This document shows, one piece after another, positions 3,857 through 43,461 of a stretch of DNA of 64,000 nucleotides (its first letter is position 1; each line of letters begins with the position of its first letter). Both the position numbers and the translations under genes were made by a program. The stretch covers positions 65,558 to 129,557 of the forward strand of contig JAJDUU010000021.1 of NCBI GenBank assembly GCA_022826485.1, in the 5' to 3' direction. A model generated the notes under the pieces. It was not told where the DNA came from and made no database searches. It saw only the letters and a list, made by a program, of their open reading frames with translations. This DNA comes from Chloroflexota bacterium (lineage in GTDB: Bacteria > Chloroflexota > UBA11872).

Positions 3857-4308
3857 CAAATTCCCGATCGCGGCTCTTCCGAAGTCCACCAAGCCTCACA
3901 CAGGCGGAGGCGCCGCGCGTACCCGGATCGCCGACGAGCGCTTGGCAACCGATCACGCCTGTTCGGGTGACGGGACCTCCGGCCAGGCACATCCCGTCAG
4001 TGGCATGTCGAGGCAAGTCGCCCATGGTTTTCCGCGCAACAGTGGCTATGCTTACAGTCGAATCAGCCGACGTGCGGCGACCCTGAGGCTGGGCGTGCAC
4101 GGCTGGGCCTTGTGCCACCCGCGCGAGCGGTGCTGGAACGGGCGCCGCGGCAGATCATCAGATCTGCCCGGCGGCTTGGAAACGATGAACGGTCCGCGCA
4201 TTGCGGCGCGGACCCGCATCCAGCAGGGTGAGAATCCCGCCGCACGTCACGTCGTGGTTGCCTGACCGGGGCTTACGCCCCGGACCATTCATGGACGGAG
4301 CATGTCCC

Positions 4309-4902
4309 ATGGCCCGCTTGGCGATATTCATCGATGGCGCCTACCTCGAGTCGATCCTCAAGTACGAGTACGGCGGCGTCCGGATCGATCTGACGAAGCT
4401 GGTGGACGAGATCCAGAGCTATATCGAGGAAAACAGCCCGGAGCCCATCGAGGTCCTGCGCACGTACTACTACAACTGCCGCCCGTATCAGAGCGACCCG
4501 CCCACACCGGAAGAGATCGACCGATACTCGAACTCCCGACGATTCGAGGATGCCCTGCGCTATCTGCCGCGCTTCGAGGTGCGGCTGGGATATCTCCGCA
4601 AGAGCGGCATCGACGAGTGGGGCAACCCGGTGTTCGAGCAGAAGCAGGTCGATCTGCTGCTGGGCCTCGACATGGCGCTGCTTGCCAGCAAGCGGCAAGT
4701 GCAGCACGTGGCGCTGGTGGCCGGTGACGGGGATCTCTATCCCGCCGTGCAAGTCCTCAAGAGCGAGGGCGCCATTGCCTGGTTGATCCACGGACCGCGG
4801 CAGGGCAGCGACGGGCGCCCGATGTACTCGTCCAATCTCTTCAAGGCCGCCGACGAGCGGTTCGAGTTGGACGAGGAGATGATCGACCGCCTGCGGATGT
4901 AG
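4309..4902 (+). CDS. NYN-domain protein (LabA-like PIN-fold RNase family)
   Basis: MARLAIFIDGAYLESI…LVAGDGDLYPAVQVL… is the hallmark NYN/LabA N-terminus and the GDGD acidic motif. It is 198 aa from ATG 4309, preceded by a ~450-bp intergenic region. Confidence 0.6.
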   Translation: MARLAIFIDGAYLESILKYEYGGVRIDLTKLVDEIQSYIEENSPEPIEVLRTYYYNCRPYQSDPPTPEEIDRYSNSRRFEDALRYLPRFEVRLGYLRKSGIDEWGNPVFEQKQVDLLLGLDMALLASKRQVQHVALVAGDGDLYPAVQVLKSEGAIAWLIHGPRQGSDGRPMYSSNLFKAADERFELDEEMIDRLRM

Positions 4903-4956
4903 GGGCCTCGCGCCGGGTCGTTCCCTGGACGCGCCCAAACGTCAACGCCACGGCCC

Positions 4957-6102
4957 CTAGGCCCCAGCCACGCGGGCTCGCGCGAGGCCGCGCCGGGCGA
5001 GCACGGTGACCAGCACCAGCGAGCCCGCGAGCGCGGCGACGCCGACCCAGTTCATGCCGCCGGCGCTGAACACCGGGCCGGTCGCGAGACTGCCGGTAGC
5101 CGCGGCAACCGCGGCGAGCGCATCGCCCGCGCCCTGGGTTCGTCCCCGCTCACGCGGCGAGAGGCCGTCGATGAGCAGGGCCGAGCCGGCGACGAAGCAC
5201 ATGTTCCAGCCGTAGCCAACCAGGAACATTGCGAGCAGCATCACGCCCAGGTCCGCCGAGAATGGCGTGAGGACGCTGGCGGCGACCAGTTGCCCCGCGC
5301 CAAGCACGATCACCGGCATGCGTCCGTAGCGGTCCACGAGCCGACCGGTGAGCGCCGCGAGTCCGAACATGCCCACGGTGTGGACCGCCACCGCAATCGC
5401 GATGGTGGTCGGCACGTGGTCGTGGTTGTGCAGGTGCAGCGGCGCAATGGTCATCACCATCACCATGACGAGTTGCCCGACCAGCATGGCGAGCACGGCC
5501 ACCCGGACGTTGACGGCGCGAAAGATTTCGCGCAAGGGGCGGACAGCCGCGTCCGAGCCGCCGCGCGTGACGACATCCAACGGCGACGCGACGGACATGT
5601 CGCGCGGGTCGGGGCGCACGAAGGTCAGAATCAAGCTCACGGCCACGCCAACCAGCACGGCGGCGGCCAGCCAGGGCCCGGCGAGTTCATTGATTCCGGC
5701 CCCCTCGGCCAGGTTCGTGGATACGTAGACGGTCAGCGGGCCGCCGATGGACCCGATGGTGCCGGCGAAGACCATGCGGCCGATGATCCGCCCGCGGCGC
5801 CGCGCCGAATGCACCTCGGCGGCGACGTAGCGCGACTGGTCGCTCGACGCCCGCGACATGCCGAAAACCGCCGCCCCTGCCACCAGTCCGGCGTAGGATT
5901 CGCCCATGATGGCAAGGGCTCCCACCACCGCGCCGACGACGCCCATCAGGTAGCCGAGCGCGAGCGCCGGGCGGCGTCCCGCGGCGTCCATGAGCCAACC
6001 GATCGGATAGGCCGCCAGCGCCCGCCCAAACAGCATGGCGGCGCCCGGTATCCCGGCGTAGGCGGCGTCTCCGGCCAGCGTCGCCGCGGCAATGGTCAAC
6101 AC
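4957..6102 (-). CDS. MFS transporter
   Basis: 381-aa translation with about 12 hydrophobic segments and the MFS loop motif (…GRRPALALGYL… and …DRYGRMPVIVLG…). Confidence 0.7.
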   Translation of the reverse strand: MLTIAAATLAGDAAYAGIPGAAMLFGRALAAYPIGWLMDAAGRRPALALGYLMGVVGAVVGALAIMGESYAGLVAGAAVFGMSRASSDQSRYVAAEVHSARRRGRIIGRMVFAGTIGSIGGPLTVYVSTNLAEGAGINELAGPWLAAAVLVGVAVSLILTFVRPDPRDMSVASPLDVVTRGGSDAAVRPLREIFRAVNVRVAVLAMLVGQLVMVMVMTIAPLHLHNHDHVPTTIAIAVAVHTVGMFGLAALTGRLVDRYGRMPVIVLGAGQLVAASVLTPFSADLGVMLLAMFLVGYGWNMCFVAGSALLIDGLSPRERGRTQGAGDALAAVAAATGSLATGPVFSAGGMNWVGVAALAGSLVLVTVLARRGLARARVAGA

Positions 6103-6296
6103 GGTAAAGCTGGCGCCGCCCGCGGCCGAGAACGAGGCTTGGGCGGCGAAGAGCGCCGCGGTAATGCGCTGTGGGGCGGTCAGCGCCGGAATGATGGACG
6201 TGAGCCTGTCTCCGCGCGTGGGCGTGCGGGCATTCTAGGCGGGAGTGAGACGGGCTATCGTGGTCCCAGACACGGGGCCACAAGGAGCGGGCACTG

Positions 6297-40094: not shown

Positions 40095-40487
40095 CTACAG
40101 CACAGTCCGCACGTGAGGGTAGCCGGCGATTTTCTCGTCGGAGGTCACCAGGGGGAAACCAAGCACCCGGGCAGTGGCGACGATGATCTGGTCCGACGGA
40201 TCACGATGGAACTCTCCGGGCAGGCTGATCGACTCCACAGCGACCGCAGGCGTCAACTCCAACAGGGTGACTCCGGGATATCCGAGCGCTGCATCGAACC
40301 ACTCGGAAAGACCGACCGGCAACGCCAAGCGTCCGTACTCGCAGAGCTTCGCGATCTCCCAGCAGGAAATGGCGCTGACGCCGATGCCGACGTCCTCGCT
40401 CCCCGCGATCTCCCTCCGCTGCGTGCCGGTCAGCCGCTCGGGATCAATCGTCCACCACACCCAGGCGTGGGTGTCAAGCATGATCAT
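40095..40487 (-). CDS. PIN-domain protein (VapC-like toxin)
   Basis: MIMLDTHAWVWW…, …VSAISCWEIA… and …IIVATARVLGFPLVTSD… match the PIN acidic quartet layout. The ATG overlaps the stop of the upstream gene (ATGA). Confidence 0.7.
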   Translation of the reverse strand: MIMLDTHAWVWWTIDPERLTGTQRREIAGSEDVGIGVSAISCWEIAKLCEYGRLALPVGLSEWFDAALGYPGVTLLELTPAVAVESISLPGEFHRDPSDQIIVATARVLGFPLVTSDEKIAGYPHVRTVL

Positions 40488-41101
40488 GACCGAATCGCCC
40501 AGTCGTCCGCCGCAACCGGTTCGTGGGGGAGATCGTAGCGGTAGGGTTCGCCTCGCAGGGGGTAGCGACCGTCGTCGGGTGGAACCCGTTTCACCGCCCA
40601 CCTCGGCTCGTGCTCCAGGTTGAAGTGCCTGCCGTGGGTCAGGACGTAGATTCGCGGGTTCGGACCCGAGACATCCACAACCCGGTAAATCGAAGCACCC
40701 CCACGGGTGAGGGCGTCGTGCGACCTCTGGCTGGAGACCTTGAGCTTGTGCCAGTCCAGAGTGGACGACTCGGTGCCCTTGACCTCAATTCGCTCGCACC
40801 GACCGTCGATAGAGACCCTGAGGTCCGCGCCGTCCCCATCCTCCTCGATCTCCGCCCGGCGTCCGTGTCTGTCGCTTAGGTGCTTGCGGACGATCGACAC
40901 CGCCTTTTCGGCGGTGCCGAGGCCGGCCAGATCGTGGCGCTGCGTCGGGCTCAGGGCAACCGAGAATGATGGGTAACGGCTGGTGGATTCAGGCAATGCG
41001 TCGATCTGCGATGTGGATTGGGCGTGCGGAGAGGTGATCGCTGTCCCCCGGCGGCCGCTGGTCACGTTTATCCGTTGCCTGAGCTGGTCGGCCCGGTCCA
41101 T
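40484..41101 (-). CDS. DUF3883-like (predicted PD-(D/E)xK nuclease fold) domain protein, translationally coupled to the PIN gene
   Basis: …AGLGTAEKAVSIVRKHL…GADLRVSIDGRCERIEVKGTESS…LKVSSQRSHDAL…IYRVVDV… matches the DUF3883 pattern GxxGExxV…YDI…IEVK(T)T…LSxNE…YxxYRV. The start is ATG 41101 or upstream M at 41158. Confidence 0.5.
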   Translation of the reverse strand: MDRADQLRQRINVTSGRRGTAITSPHAQSTSQIDALPESTSRYPSFSVALSPTQRHDLAGLGTAEKAVSIVRKHLSDRHGRRAEIEEDGDGADLRVSIDGRCERIEVKGTESSTLDWHKLKVSSQRSHDALTRGGASIYRVVDVSGPNPRIYVLTHGRHFNLEHEPRWAVKRVPPDDGRYPLRGEPYRYDLPHEPVAADDWAIRS

Positions 41102-41546
41102 GGCTCGACGCCTCTCAGATTCCTGAGTCGGGCCGTCGTCCCCCGGGTCCGCGACCAATCGAAACTGGCCGCGGCCAACGCGCCAGACCTTGGGCGCCGA
41201 TCCCCTCCCGACAAAGTCGCCGATCTTCTCGCCTTCCGTTGAGACGCTGCTGTTGAACGGACAGACGTTGATCGTGGTCAGCGCGAACTCGGGACTTCCG
41301 GGACCCGCAAGAAACGGTAAGGTCGCCAGTCCTCCATACGCGAGGGATGAGGTCCCGGTCGCGAAGGTCGTAGACGTGATCCCAGAAGGTGGTCCGACGG
41401 TCGCTCATCGGTACGCCTCGATACGGCCTGTTTCGTATACCTATCCTATTCTAGGATCGGATATATAGTATAGGAGTTTTTGTGCAAGGCCGCAGGCGCG
41501 GCAGCGGACGAACCGCTCTTGGTAATAGACGCAGCATGGTGAGACT

Positions 41547-41621
41547 TGGCTCCTCGGGCAGGACTCGAACCTGCAACCCTGCGGTTAACAGCCGCACGCT
41601 CTACCATTGAGCTACCGAGGA
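41547..41621 (-). tRNA. tRNA-Asn (anticodon GTT)
   Basis: Reverse complement: TCCTCGGTAGCTCAATGGTAGAGCGTGCGGCTGTTAACCGCAGGGTTGCAGGTTCGAGTCCTGCCCGAGGAGCCA, with anticodon loop CUGUUAA. Confidence 0.85.
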
Positions 41622-41691: not shown

Positions 41692-41806
41692 TTAGCCCTC
41701 GGCGACCTCTTCGGCATCTCCGCCGCCAATAAACTTCCGGATTGCGCGGAATGCCACCGCGACCACCCCGACGATCGCTGTGAGAATACCGATGCGTTTG
41801 AGCATG
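41692..41806 (-). CDS. Possible 37-aa single-TM peptide
   Basis: MLKRIGILTAIVGVVAVAFRAIRKFIGGGDAEEVAEG, with aagg about 10 nt upstream. A short ORF is weak evidence in this GC-rich sequence. Confidence 0.25.
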
Positions 41807-41946: not shown

Positions 41947-43461
41947 CTAGCCTTTGATCACGCCCACGGGCCGGAGCCGGGCCACGTTCCGAGAGATGCC
42001 GGCGCCATGGGTGACGGCGGTCACGTCGGCCACATTCTTGTAGGCGTCTGGCGCTTCCTCGCTGAGCAATCGGGCGTTGCGGGCGCGAACGCCGACACCC
42101 ATCGCGCCGAGGCGCTCGACCATGTTCACCCCTCGGAGCTGCCGGCGCGCCGCCGAACGGCTGAGCGCGCGGCCGGCGCCGTGGCAGGTGGAACCAAATG
42201 ACTGCTCCATGGCGCCCGCCGTGCCGACGGCCACGTAGGACGCCCGCCCCATATCGCCCGGGATGAACACGGGTTGCCCCACCTCCTGGTATTTGCTCGG
42301 AAGCTCGGGGTGCCCAGGCGGGAAGGCGCGCGTGGCGCCCTTGCGGTGGACGCAGACGCGACGCGGTTGCCCGTCAACGATGTGCTCCTCAATCTTGGCG
42401 ATGTTGTGCGCCACGTCGTACACGACGTCCATCCCGAGCGCGCGCGACGACCGGCCAAACACGCCCGCGAGGGCCTCCCGCGTCCAGTGCGTGATGGCTT
42501 GCCGATTGGCCCAGGCGAAGTTCGCGCCGCATGCCATGGCCGCCAGGTAGTCCTGGCCTTCCGGCGAGCGCAGCGGGGCGCAGGCCAGCTGGCGATCAGG
42601 CAGATGGATTGAGCGGCTGGCCGGTGCTTGGGCAAATGTCTGCAAGTAGTCCTGGCAGATCTGGTGGCCACAGCCACGAGATCCGGTGTGCAGGAAGACG
42701 ACGATGGTTCCCGGCACCTCGATCCCAAGGGCAGCCGCGGCGGGTGCGTCGAATACCTCGTCGACGGCCTGCAGTTCGAGGAAGTGATTGCCCGAGCCCA
42801 AGGTGCCGAGTTGACCGGCGCCACGTTCCTTGGCGCGTGCCGAAACCGCGTTGGGGTCGGCGCCGGCGAGCGTTCCGCGCTCCTCGGCGACCTCGAGGTC
42901 CTCGGGCCAGCCGAGGCCCTGGTCAACGGCCCACGCGGCGCCCCGGCGCAGCACCCGGTCCATATTCTTGCGCGTCAGCCGGATGCGGCCCTTGGTCCCC
43001 ATGCCGGCAGGCACGGCGCGGAACAACGCATCGAGGGTTTCGTCGAGCCTGGGACGAAGCTCCGCCTCGGTGAGGTTGGTGCGAATGAGCCGCACGCCGC
43101 AGTTGATGTCGAAGCCGATGCCGCCGGGAGATATCACGCCGTCTCGCACGTCCGTCGCCGCCACGCCCCCGACGGGAAACCCATAGCCCCAGTGCACGTC
43201 GGGCATGGCCAGGGCGTGCCCCACGATCCCGGGCAAGAACGTGACGTTGGCCAATTGCTCCAGCGGCTTGTCGGACAGAACGGTCGGCAGCATGGTCTCG
43301 GACGAATAGATGACTCCCGGCACTCGCATGCCGGTCTTGTAGCTGGTTGGGATTTGCCAGCGATACGTATCGAGGCGCTCGAGGTGCGACGCGTCGGGGC
43401 CGGATGCCGGCGGCCCCGCGCCCCGGCCGCGCGAACGCTTCTTGCGGCGTGAGGCGCTCAC
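41947..43461 (-). CDS. rtcB: RNA-splicing ligase RtcB
   Basis: …HWGYGFPVGG…, …GIGFDINCGVR…, …GSGNHF…, …HTGSRG… and …HNIA… are RtcB metal- and GTP-binding motifs. Confidence 0.85.
   Translation of the reverse strand: MSASRRKKRSRGRGAGPPASGPDASHLERLDTYRWQIPTSYKTGMRVPGVIYSSETMLPTVLSDKPLEQLANVTFLPGIVGHALAMPDVHWGYGFPVGGVAATDVRDGVISPGGIGFDINCGVRLIRTNLTEAELRPRLDETLDALFRAVPAGMGTKGRIRLTRKNMDRVLRRGAAWAVDQGLGWPEDLEVAEERGTLAGADPNAVSARAKERGAGQLGTLGSGNHFLELQAVDEVFDAPAAAALGIEVPGTIVVFLHTGSRGCGHQICQDYLQTFAQAPASRSIHLPDRQLACAPLRSPEGQDYLAAMACGANFAWANRQAITHWTREALAGVFGRSSRALGMDVVYDVAHNIAKIEEHIVDGQPRRVCVHRKGATRAFPPGHPELPSKYQEVGQPVFIPGDMGRASYVAVGTAGAMEQSFGSTCHGAGRALSRSAARRQLRGVNMVERLGAMGVGVRARNARLLSEEAPDAYKNVADVTAVTHGAGISRNVARLRPVGVIKG

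Follow-up and report, generated by a model that had tools for sequence, protein, structure and literature searches.

A Chloroflexota PIN-Domain Toxin–Antitoxin Module with a Probable Composite Antitoxin Containing a PD-(D/E)xK-Like Domain

Organization of the Locus

A 64,000-nt stretch of DNA from a Chloroflexota bacterium (GenBank assembly GCA_022826485.1, contig JAJDUU010000021.1, positions 65,558 to 129,557), hereafter called the window, carries on its minus strand a two-gene module that probably constitutes a type II toxin–antitoxin cassette. The coordinates given below are window positions, except those that follow the number of another locus. The downstream gene (40095..40487, minus strand) encodes a VapC-like PIN-domain protein of 130 aa, the proposed toxin. 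The upstream gene (40484..41408, minus strand) belongs to a family of ~308-aa proteins and is proposed to encode the antitoxin.

The open reading frame (ORF) of the PIN gene begins with the ATG at 40487 and ends with the stop at 40095. Its product is matched by the Pfam family PIN (PF01850) with an E-value of 4.4e-13 and a score of 50.3 bits, against a cut-off of 23.6. The acidic residues are in place: D5 (40473-40475), E44 (40356-40358), D96 (40200-40202), D99 (40191-40193), and D117 (40137-40139), all read from the minus strand. In an alignment of 17 PIN relatives encoded by partner genes at other loci, which are 53-79% identical to the window PIN, D5, E44, D96, and D117 are invariant and D99 is nearly so. 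An identical protein is found in public data (P0154), and the members of its 90% cluster are called "type II toxin-antitoxin system VapC family toxin" by NCBI. A search of PDB sequences with the PIN profile gave a weak VapC match as its sole result (7by2, E 0.0017), and the gene product matched no NCBIfam family and no entry of PADLOC-DB v2. Judged by its sequence, the toxin is an ordinary VapC-family PIN protein with a complete acidic active site, and it would be expected to be toxic. The stop codon of the antitoxin gene (TGA, 40484-40486) overlaps the ATG of the PIN gene (40485-40487) as ATGA, and the same 4-nt overlap is present in every locus with called genes (L080, L081, and L083-L086). 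Both the VapC-like nature of the downstream gene and this overlap had been proposed in an initial annotation of the stretch, and both were borne out.

The structure of the upstream gene turned out to be different from what had been proposed. It had been described as encoding a standalone protein of ~200 aa, and the ORF in question (40484-41158) does contain every motif quoted for it (GTAEKAV, GADLRV, IEVKGT, LKVSSQRSHDA, and IYRV). Translation in three frames revealed a plausible N-terminus that starts at the ATG at 41408, in another frame than the downstream ORF. A homologue search with the two-frame composite returned 181 relatives, and the best match was 93% identical (E 5e-190). The best 120 of the 181 are nearly all 302-320 aa long, cover 97-100% of the composite, and are called "hypothetical" proteins; the relatives of 302-320 aa align from the ATG at 41408. 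Relatives with a named source, as well as the full-length loci found in genomes, come almost entirely from uncultured Chloroflexota. DNA alignment with L080, L001, and L002 showed that the window gene is split by a 2-nt deletion (41318..41319, minus strand), which removes the CG of CTT-CGA-CCG in the Arg31 codon. With the two nucleotides restored, the gene encodes a 308-aa protein in which 289/308 residues are identical to those of the relative P0001.

Two independent assemblies with an identical PIN, an ENA scaffold (L081) and a Logan contig (L082, SRR16351679), are 100% identical to the window over 6,393 and 4,482 bases, respectively, save for the 2-nt gap, and encode the intact 308-aa protein. 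Because these otherwise identical assemblies carry the intact gene, the deletion is most simply taken as an artefact or a minor variant. The frameshift is probably specific to the window sequence, either as an assembly artefact or as a rare variant. Programmed frameshifting was rejected, since no shift occurs in the relatives or in the identical assemblies. Genes split across reading frames were also seen elsewhere, namely the PIN genes of L010 (4882-5565), L038 (2240-2672), and L077 (4039-4554) and the antitoxin gene of L042 (3995-4835); these may be sequencing indels or pseudogenes. The antitoxin matched no NCBIfam family and no antitoxin family of Pfam or NCBIfam, and a search of PDB sequences with the profile of the antitoxin family gave no match.

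Domain Architecture of the Antitoxin

An AlphaFold2 model of the 308-aa protein was built on an alignment of 40 sequences, with a mean predicted local distance difference test (pLDDT) score of 81. The N-terminal module (residues 1-118; 41057..41408, minus strand) is modelled with confidence and consists of a winged-helix-like domain (residues ~1-90) and a long helix (residues 93-118). It is followed by a low-complexity linker (residues 119-144; 40979..41056, minus strand), which varies in length and sequence in the alignment and has a pLDDT of <50 at residues 119-143. The next part is a confident alpha/beta domain (residues 145-275; 40586..40978, minus strand) of the PD-(D/E)xK type, similar to DUF3883/NOV_C, with the putative catalytic residues D196 (40823-40825), E209 (40784-40786), and K211 (40778-40780). 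The top Foldseek matches were Hjc, with a probability of up to 0.93 but an E-value of only ~0.02. The domain has the PD-(D/E)xK restriction-endonuclease-like fold together with the D…(D/E)xK motif, in agreement with the fold that had been predicted initially.

The initial annotation had also described an N-terminal extension of ~60 aa with no assigned function. This segment is the end of the 118-residue winged-helix and helix module together with the linker, and the winged-helix module had been missed because of the frameshift. Two further parts of that description stand. The partner of the PIN gene is not an AbrB- or ribbon-helix-helix (RHH)-type VapB, its DNA-binding-type module being a winged helix. 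The pair also departs from the usual arrangement of a small VapB and VapC, as a PD-(D/E)xK/DUF3883-like domain is present.

The relationship to DUF3883 is a distant one. The window ORF is matched by Pfam NOV_C (PF13020) at 18.6 bits (E 0.002), under the gathering cut-off of 22.1, and the scores of the repaired-length composite and of P0001 are 17.8 and 13.7 bits, respectively. NOV_C is matched by 32 of the 40 relatives (E <= 0.1), with a best E-value of 1.3e-7, and a precomputed PF13020 assignment exists for 16 of the 120 best relatives. Since some of the relatives pass the cut-off, the family can be regarded as a divergent branch of DUF3883, of which the window protein is no formal member. 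The match had been called a good one; all of its motifs are indeed present and the relatives and the fold support it, but the window ORF itself stays below the Pfam cut-off. Additionally, a search of PADLOC-DB v2 gave weak domain-level matches to the DUF3883-bearing C-terminus of the Tiamat protein TmtA (best E 5e-5 for P0038; 0.018 for P0001).

The putative catalytic residues are well conserved. In the 40-sequence alignment, E209 is invariant, D196 and K211 are kept at 90% or more, and the triad is among the best-conserved positions. Of 116 relatives that were scored, 105 have the D and 99 have ExK, and the rest vary (with forms such as ExQ, ExN, ExE, and VxK). The D…ExK motif is kept in ~85% of these relatives and is intact in the window. 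The strong, though not universal, conservation of the triad suggests that these residues are required for some function of the domain in most lineages, such as metal binding, nucleic-acid binding, or cleavage. Its repeated loss suggests that this activity is separable from the antitoxin function.

Natural variants show that the globular parts of the protein can be lost independently. A sub-family of 169-181 aa (L037-L044, e.g., L037 3998-4507) consists of the nuclease fold and a C-terminal tail without the winged helix, and intact PIN genes follow. Most of the 169-aa variants have a degenerate ExK (RVN, EVN, QVS, or RVS), and the fold appears to have been kept in this branch without catalysis. 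In L047 (3977-4405) and L048 (3995-4402), proteins of 135-142 aa have the winged helix and the long helix joined straight to the tail, with no nuclease domain and with a PIN gene downstream. This architecture indicates that the nuclease domain is an insertable and removable cassette. A homologue search with the N-terminal 116 residues alone found one truncated protein only.

The C-Terminal Tail and Its Association with PIN Genes

The C-terminal tail of the protein (residues 280-308, DDGRYPLRGEPYRYDLPHEPVAADDWAIRS; 40487..40573, minus strand) is conserved in sequence and disordered in the model, and it is proposed to be the PIN-neutralising peptide. Its pLDDT is <50 at residues 286-298 and 304-308, and the block means are 46-48 from residue 281. 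Y283, Y292, P295, A300, and W304 are invariant in the alignment. The consensus of the tail, YPLRGxPYRYDxP(F/Y)(D/E)PVAxx(D/E)WE, is also the C-terminus of very different proteins. A genome scan, in which one genome per species was kept, yielded 79 loci, many of which match the last ~25-50 residues only. The proteins that bear the tail include the nuclease-domain-only and winged-helix-only forms and an internally deleted form (L046). The tail is also found on proteins of ~70 aa with at least three N-terminal types in Acidobacteriota, Planctomycetota, Gemmatimonadota, Cyanobacteria, Calditrichota, Proteobacteria, and others. Most of these small proteins have no Pfam match, and their AbrB/DUF104-like look was judged by eye only. 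One further host is a NUDIX hydrolase (L073 3500-4081; Pfam NUDIX E 4e-18) that ends in YPLRGQPYRYDKPFDSVAEKDW. No PIN gene was detected downstream of it, and this fusion may be an orphan or may be paired with something else.

A search with a single 30-aa tail sequence against 1.84 billion representatives, which displays the diversity of lengths and is no real census, gave 24 matches at E <= 0.001 in proteins of 43-316 aa, of which P0179, a eukaryote-like repeat protein, is spurious. In P0198, the tail ends a protein whose N-terminal part is a bona fide FitA-like RHH antitoxin domain (PF22513, E 1.4e-12). What had been described initially as a C-terminal extension with no assigned function is, in fact, a conserved tail that also occurs on small PIN antitoxins of the classical kind, a FitA-like RHH antitoxin among them. 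A disordered peptide with invariant aromatic and proline positions that tracks one toxin subfamily has the look of a toxin-binding antitoxin segment, and we infer that it binds the PIN protein.

The pairing of tail and toxin recurs across genomes, and the recurrence that had been put forward as a check on the initial annotation was observed. A PIN gene of the same subfamily lies immediately downstream in 36/36 full-length loci. By our count, a PIN of this subfamily adjoins the tail in 63 of the 75 tail-bearing loci for which downstream sequence is available. No PIN gene accompanies L049, the sole relative in which the nuclease-like domain occurs without the tail, and this locus serves as a negative control. 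Natural variants that lack one or the other globular domain keep the tail and the PIN gene, which indicates that neither domain is needed for the pairing.

Several loci deserve a separate mention. L050 and the Vicinamibacterales loci L051, L052, and L053 are decayed remnants that look like eroded copies of the module, with the tail-coding end alone surviving. In L050, the PIN gene is split across frames. Right after the tail in L052 starts an ORF whose first residues, MIVLDS, are PIN-like, and its remainder is similar to the downstream ORFs in L051 and L053. In the cyanobacterial loci L065 (~3959-6172) and L075 (3863-7247), the genes of small tail-bearing proteins precede a large ORF (~1,030 aa in L075), and no PIN gene is present; by eye only, this ORF resembles the HsdR subunit of type I restriction systems. 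The modules and flanks of L011, from a Dehalococcoidia metagenome-assembled genome (MAG), and L014, from a Vicinamibacterales MAG, are nearly identical, which may reflect either a binning error or a recent inter-phylum transfer.

Upstream Region

The AT-rich patch that had been noticed between the module and the neighbouring tRNA gene is real, with a GC content of 33% at 41430-41480 compared with 66.8% for the whole window. It has the appearance of a promoter/operator region (41430..41487, minus strand). The patch contains an imperfect palindrome, CCGATCCTA-GAA-TAGGATAGG (41440-41460), inside a second inverted repeat (41444-41475), and a TTGCAC hexamer (41482-41487), while a Shine-Dalgarno-like GAGG motif is located at 41414-41419. 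In gene orientation, the region reads …TTGCAC-AAAAACTCCTATACTATATATCCGATCCTAGAATAGGATAGGTATACG…GAGGCGTACCG-ATG. In L080, the closest relative, the two arms of the palindrome match perfectly (CCTATCCTA-AAA-TAGGATAGG). The best inverted repeat beats all 100 shuffles in the window, L080, L010, and L020. More distant relatives have a TTGACA hexamer at the same position, followed by AT-rich short repeats of their own. A terminator scan gave one terminator-like match, which is inside the coding region and at chance level. It is plausible that the patch is the promoter and operator of the operon, with the winged helix as its likely binder.

Proposed Mechanism

The module is probably a chromosomal VapBC-type type II toxin–antitoxin cassette with a composite antitoxin, in which the tail neutralises the PIN toxin, the winged helix autoregulates the operon, and the PD-(D/E)xK domain is accessory. 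The disordered C-terminal ~28 residues (YPLRGxPYRYDxPxxPVAxxDWE) would fold onto the PIN protein and block its activity. The tail may be understood as a portable peptide that evolution has attached to many N-terminal modules. The winged helix would bind the palindrome of the AT-rich patch and autoregulate the operon, probably as a dimer held together by the long helix, the nuclease-fold domain, or both. The PD-(D/E)xK domain would most likely bind or cut nucleic acid and may modulate the timing of PIN release, and it would be dispensable for the toxin–antitoxin pairing itself.

Some of the observations weigh against this model. The retention of the motif in ~85% of relatives suggests selection on catalysis or on metal or nucleic-acid binding, which a passive accessory role does not explain. 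The gene is frameshifted in the window, and if the frameshift were real, the winged helix would be lost here. Additionally, 12 of the 75 tail-bearing loci have no PIN gene and are orphans or remnants. With respect to autoregulation, significant upstream inverted repeats were present in just 4 of the 26 sequences tested, and a scan of the upstream region for the sigma-70 consensus found no promoter.

Comparison with Known Systems

The module has features in common with the VapBC and FitAB systems. Its PIN toxin has the conserved acidic residues, the antitoxin gene is located upstream and is translationally coupled, the antitoxin combines an N-terminus of the DNA-binding type with a disordered C-terminal region, a palindrome is present in the putative promoter region, and the tail itself occurs on the FitA-like RHH antitoxin P0198. 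Differences appear in the antitoxin, which has 308 aa instead of ~70-90 aa, whose DNA-binding module is a winged helix and not an RHH, AbrB, or Phd domain, and which has a PD-(D/E)xK domain between that module and the tail.

The PIN-associated antitoxin families described by Makarova et al. in 2009 comprise COG2442/DUF433 (including winged helix-turn-helix fusions such as Rv2018), COG2886, COG2880/DUF104, COG1753, and MerR-like proteins (PMC2701414). They provide a precedent both for diverse and swappable N-terminal modules paired with PINs and for winged helix-turn-helix PIN antitoxins (PMC2701414). However, none of these families has a nuclease-fold domain, and the partners described here are unannotated "hypothetical proteins". 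In the multidomain PanA (Panacea/DUF4065) antitoxins of the NetFlax network, neutralisation of the toxin is the task of a short C-terminal element, and a sensor role has been proposed for the globular domain (PMC10440598). The antitoxin described here seems to be built likewise, from a globular domain whose role is unclear and may be sensory and a short, separate neutralising element at the C-terminus. Nevertheless, the globular folds are unrelated (PD-(D/E)xK as opposed to Panacea), and the promiscuous element here is the tail and not the globular domain.

With the DUF3883/NOV_C nucleases, i.e., enzymes of the YenY4I/McaZI type, SNF2-DUF3883 proteins of restriction–modification operons, and the C-terminus of TmtA, the family shares a PD-(D/E)xK core with D…ExK and weak to moderate matches to Pfam NOV_C and PADLOC TmtA. 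In contrast to these nucleases, the protein described here is small, fused to an antitoxin tail, and free of an ATPase, helicase, or DUF3427 partner domain; the window protein is below the Pfam cut-off, and ~15% of the family have lost the catalytic residues. A conceptual parallel is offered by PrrC-EcoprrI, in which a latent anticodon nuclease is silenced by a restriction enzyme. The shared concept would be the inactivation of an RNase toxin by a DNA enzyme of the restriction type, but the proteins are unrelated. In the literature on DUF3883 that was searched here (PMC3710099, PMC6765204), the domain is described only as a restriction-type nuclease domain, and no link to PIN proteins or antitoxins was found there.

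Alternative Explanations

The conservation of the D196/E209/K211 triad also brings to mind a guard-type abortive-infection module with two nucleases. In such a module, an Mrr-like sensor and effector would hold the PIN protein latent via the tail and would set it free on engaging foreign or modified DNA or when attacked by an anti-restriction factor of a phage, much as PrrC is silenced by EcoprrI. The order of a winged helix and a restriction-endonuclease (REase) domain resembles that of Mrr, and the weak match to the C-terminus of TmtA points in the same direction. Furthermore, catalysis in characterised modification-dependent restriction enzymes resides in DUF3883 (PMC6765204), and in restriction–modification operons it has been described as a novel REase domain (PMC3710099). 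The support for a guard function appears to come from motif conservation and to go no further. Apart from the TmtA domain match, no PADLOC-DB v2 system was matched, the called flanks are housekeeping or metabolic and contain no defence islands, and a scan of viral contigs with the family profile found no relatives. Catalytic residues have been lost (RVN, EVN, QVS) in ~15% of relatives and in most 169-aa variants, and the PIN gene is kept all the same, as it is in L047 and L048, in which the whole nuclease domain is missing. For these reasons, a guard-type module is an unlikely explanation of the locus.

A stronger form of this idea is that the 308-aa protein functions as a DNA sensor or restriction enzyme of the Mrr-like kind with a VapB-type tail, and that engagement, titration, or inhibition of its nuclease domain during infection lets the PIN toxin abort the infection. 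We consider this improbable. If it were true, the protein would be a single-polypeptide guard in which a restriction enzyme acts as the antitoxin, and the tail would be a general adaptor that hooks PINs to arbitrary sensors. The NUDIX fusion in L073 fits the idea of an adaptor, although no PIN gene comes after it.

A different question is whether the deletion in the window reflects a true pseudogene or a truncated antitoxin. The deletion is present in the sequence as given and lies outside any homopolymer. The shifted ORF, which spans 41408 to 41115, stops just ahead of an in-frame ATG (41099-41101, MDRADQL...), 14 nt beyond its stop. Translation could re-initiate at the ATG at 41101 and give a 205-aa product with the nuclease domain and the tail, which might still neutralise the PIN protein, and the natural 169-aa relatives without the winged helix do coexist with intact PINs. 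Nevertheless, the gene is intact in L081 and L082, which show zero mismatches to the window over 6.4 kb and 4.5 kb, respectively, and a truncated antitoxin is therefore doubtful as a description of this locus.

The initial annotation had suggested that a mini-island or an integration scar at the 3' side of tRNA-Asn delivered the two genes. The tRNA-Asn(GTT) gene (41547..41621, minus strand) is as initially reported and was confirmed by ARAGORN and Rfam (tRNA, 72 bits); an Rfam search around the module found the tRNA only. It is co-directional with the module and 138 nt from the antitoxin ATG, so that the module lies downstream of it, and it is regarded as context and not as part of the module. 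The same neighbour is present in L002 and L003. Other synteny groups are ~140-300 nt from other tRNA genes (Leu-Cys-Leu in L006-8; Arg/His in L009 and L023), so that proximity to tRNA genes recurs in ~3 independent contexts, which is well above chance by a rough estimate. The 36 loci fall into ~12 flank contexts, which indicates that the cassette has moved during evolution. There is perhaps some preference for tRNA-proximal sites, and the link to tRNA hot-spots remains weak.

The flanks of the module speak against an island. Flank genes were called in six tables (L080, L081, and L083-L086), which cover five relatives' loci; two of the tables describe the window's own sequence. No integrase, transposase, or recombinase is present in these called flanks. 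A repeat search found no direct repeat of the tRNA 3' end bounding the module and no att-like repeats; the only repeat near the tRNA is a 10-nt match that flanks the gene itself (D18). The GC content of the module is mostly 63-67%, like that of the flanks, with no anomaly apart from the promoter patch, and the AT-rich patch is accounted for as a promoter/operator. In the window, the neighbours of the module are RtcB and GH20, and the order RtcB, tRNA-Asn, module, GH20, and BNR is kept in L001-L003, L031, and L080, although no empty site was searched for. In these loci, RtcB and BNR are 92-96% identical to the window proteins, while the antitoxin is only 72-79% identical. Kept synteny with such flank identity indicates long vertical residence. 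Judging from the conserved synteny, the module is an old and vertically inherited resident and no recent scar, and the delivery of the two genes by a mini-island is very unlikely.

Two further features of the neighbourhood were noted. Directly upstream of tRNA-Asn and the module is an RtcB RNA ligase gene (41947-43461, minus strand), with archease just beyond according to the gene calls of L081. An RNA-repair ligase beside a toxin that probably cuts tRNA or rRNA is suggestive; the adjacency is found only in the synteny group of this clade and may be a coincidence. Between RtcB and tRNA-Asn is a 37-aa ORF, MLKRIGILTAIVGVVAVAFRAIRKFIGGGDAEEVAEG (41692-41805, minus strand), whose product resembles a small membrane protein and has no match in Pfam; gene calling recognised the ORF in both L080 and L081. 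A defence-island context was considered as well and was rejected, as the called flanks are housekeeping or metabolic with no defence genes.

Conclusions

The module is a variation on the VapBC-type theme and no categorically new system. Its interest is for specialists in the toxin–antitoxin and defence fields. The gene structure, the domain folds, the recurrent pairing, and the modular spread of the tail are established by the analysis, and we infer all of the functional steps. If the proposed reading is true, it shows how type II antitoxins can be constructed: a neutralising peptide of ~28 residues, common to several phyla, would have been grafted onto RHH, AbrB-like, helical, winged-helix, nuclease-fold, and NUDIX modules. 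It would also be a first example of a PD-(D/E)xK domain within a VapB-class antitoxin and would provide a concrete system for asking whether the accessory domains of antitoxins are sensors. With regard to annotation, the name PIN antitoxin could replace "hypothetical protein" for these partners, and searches with the tail motif could uncover more of them. The nuclease-fold version represents a conserved and so far unannotated family in uncultured Chloroflexota (SAR202 and Dehalococcoidia), including some sponge-associated MAGs.

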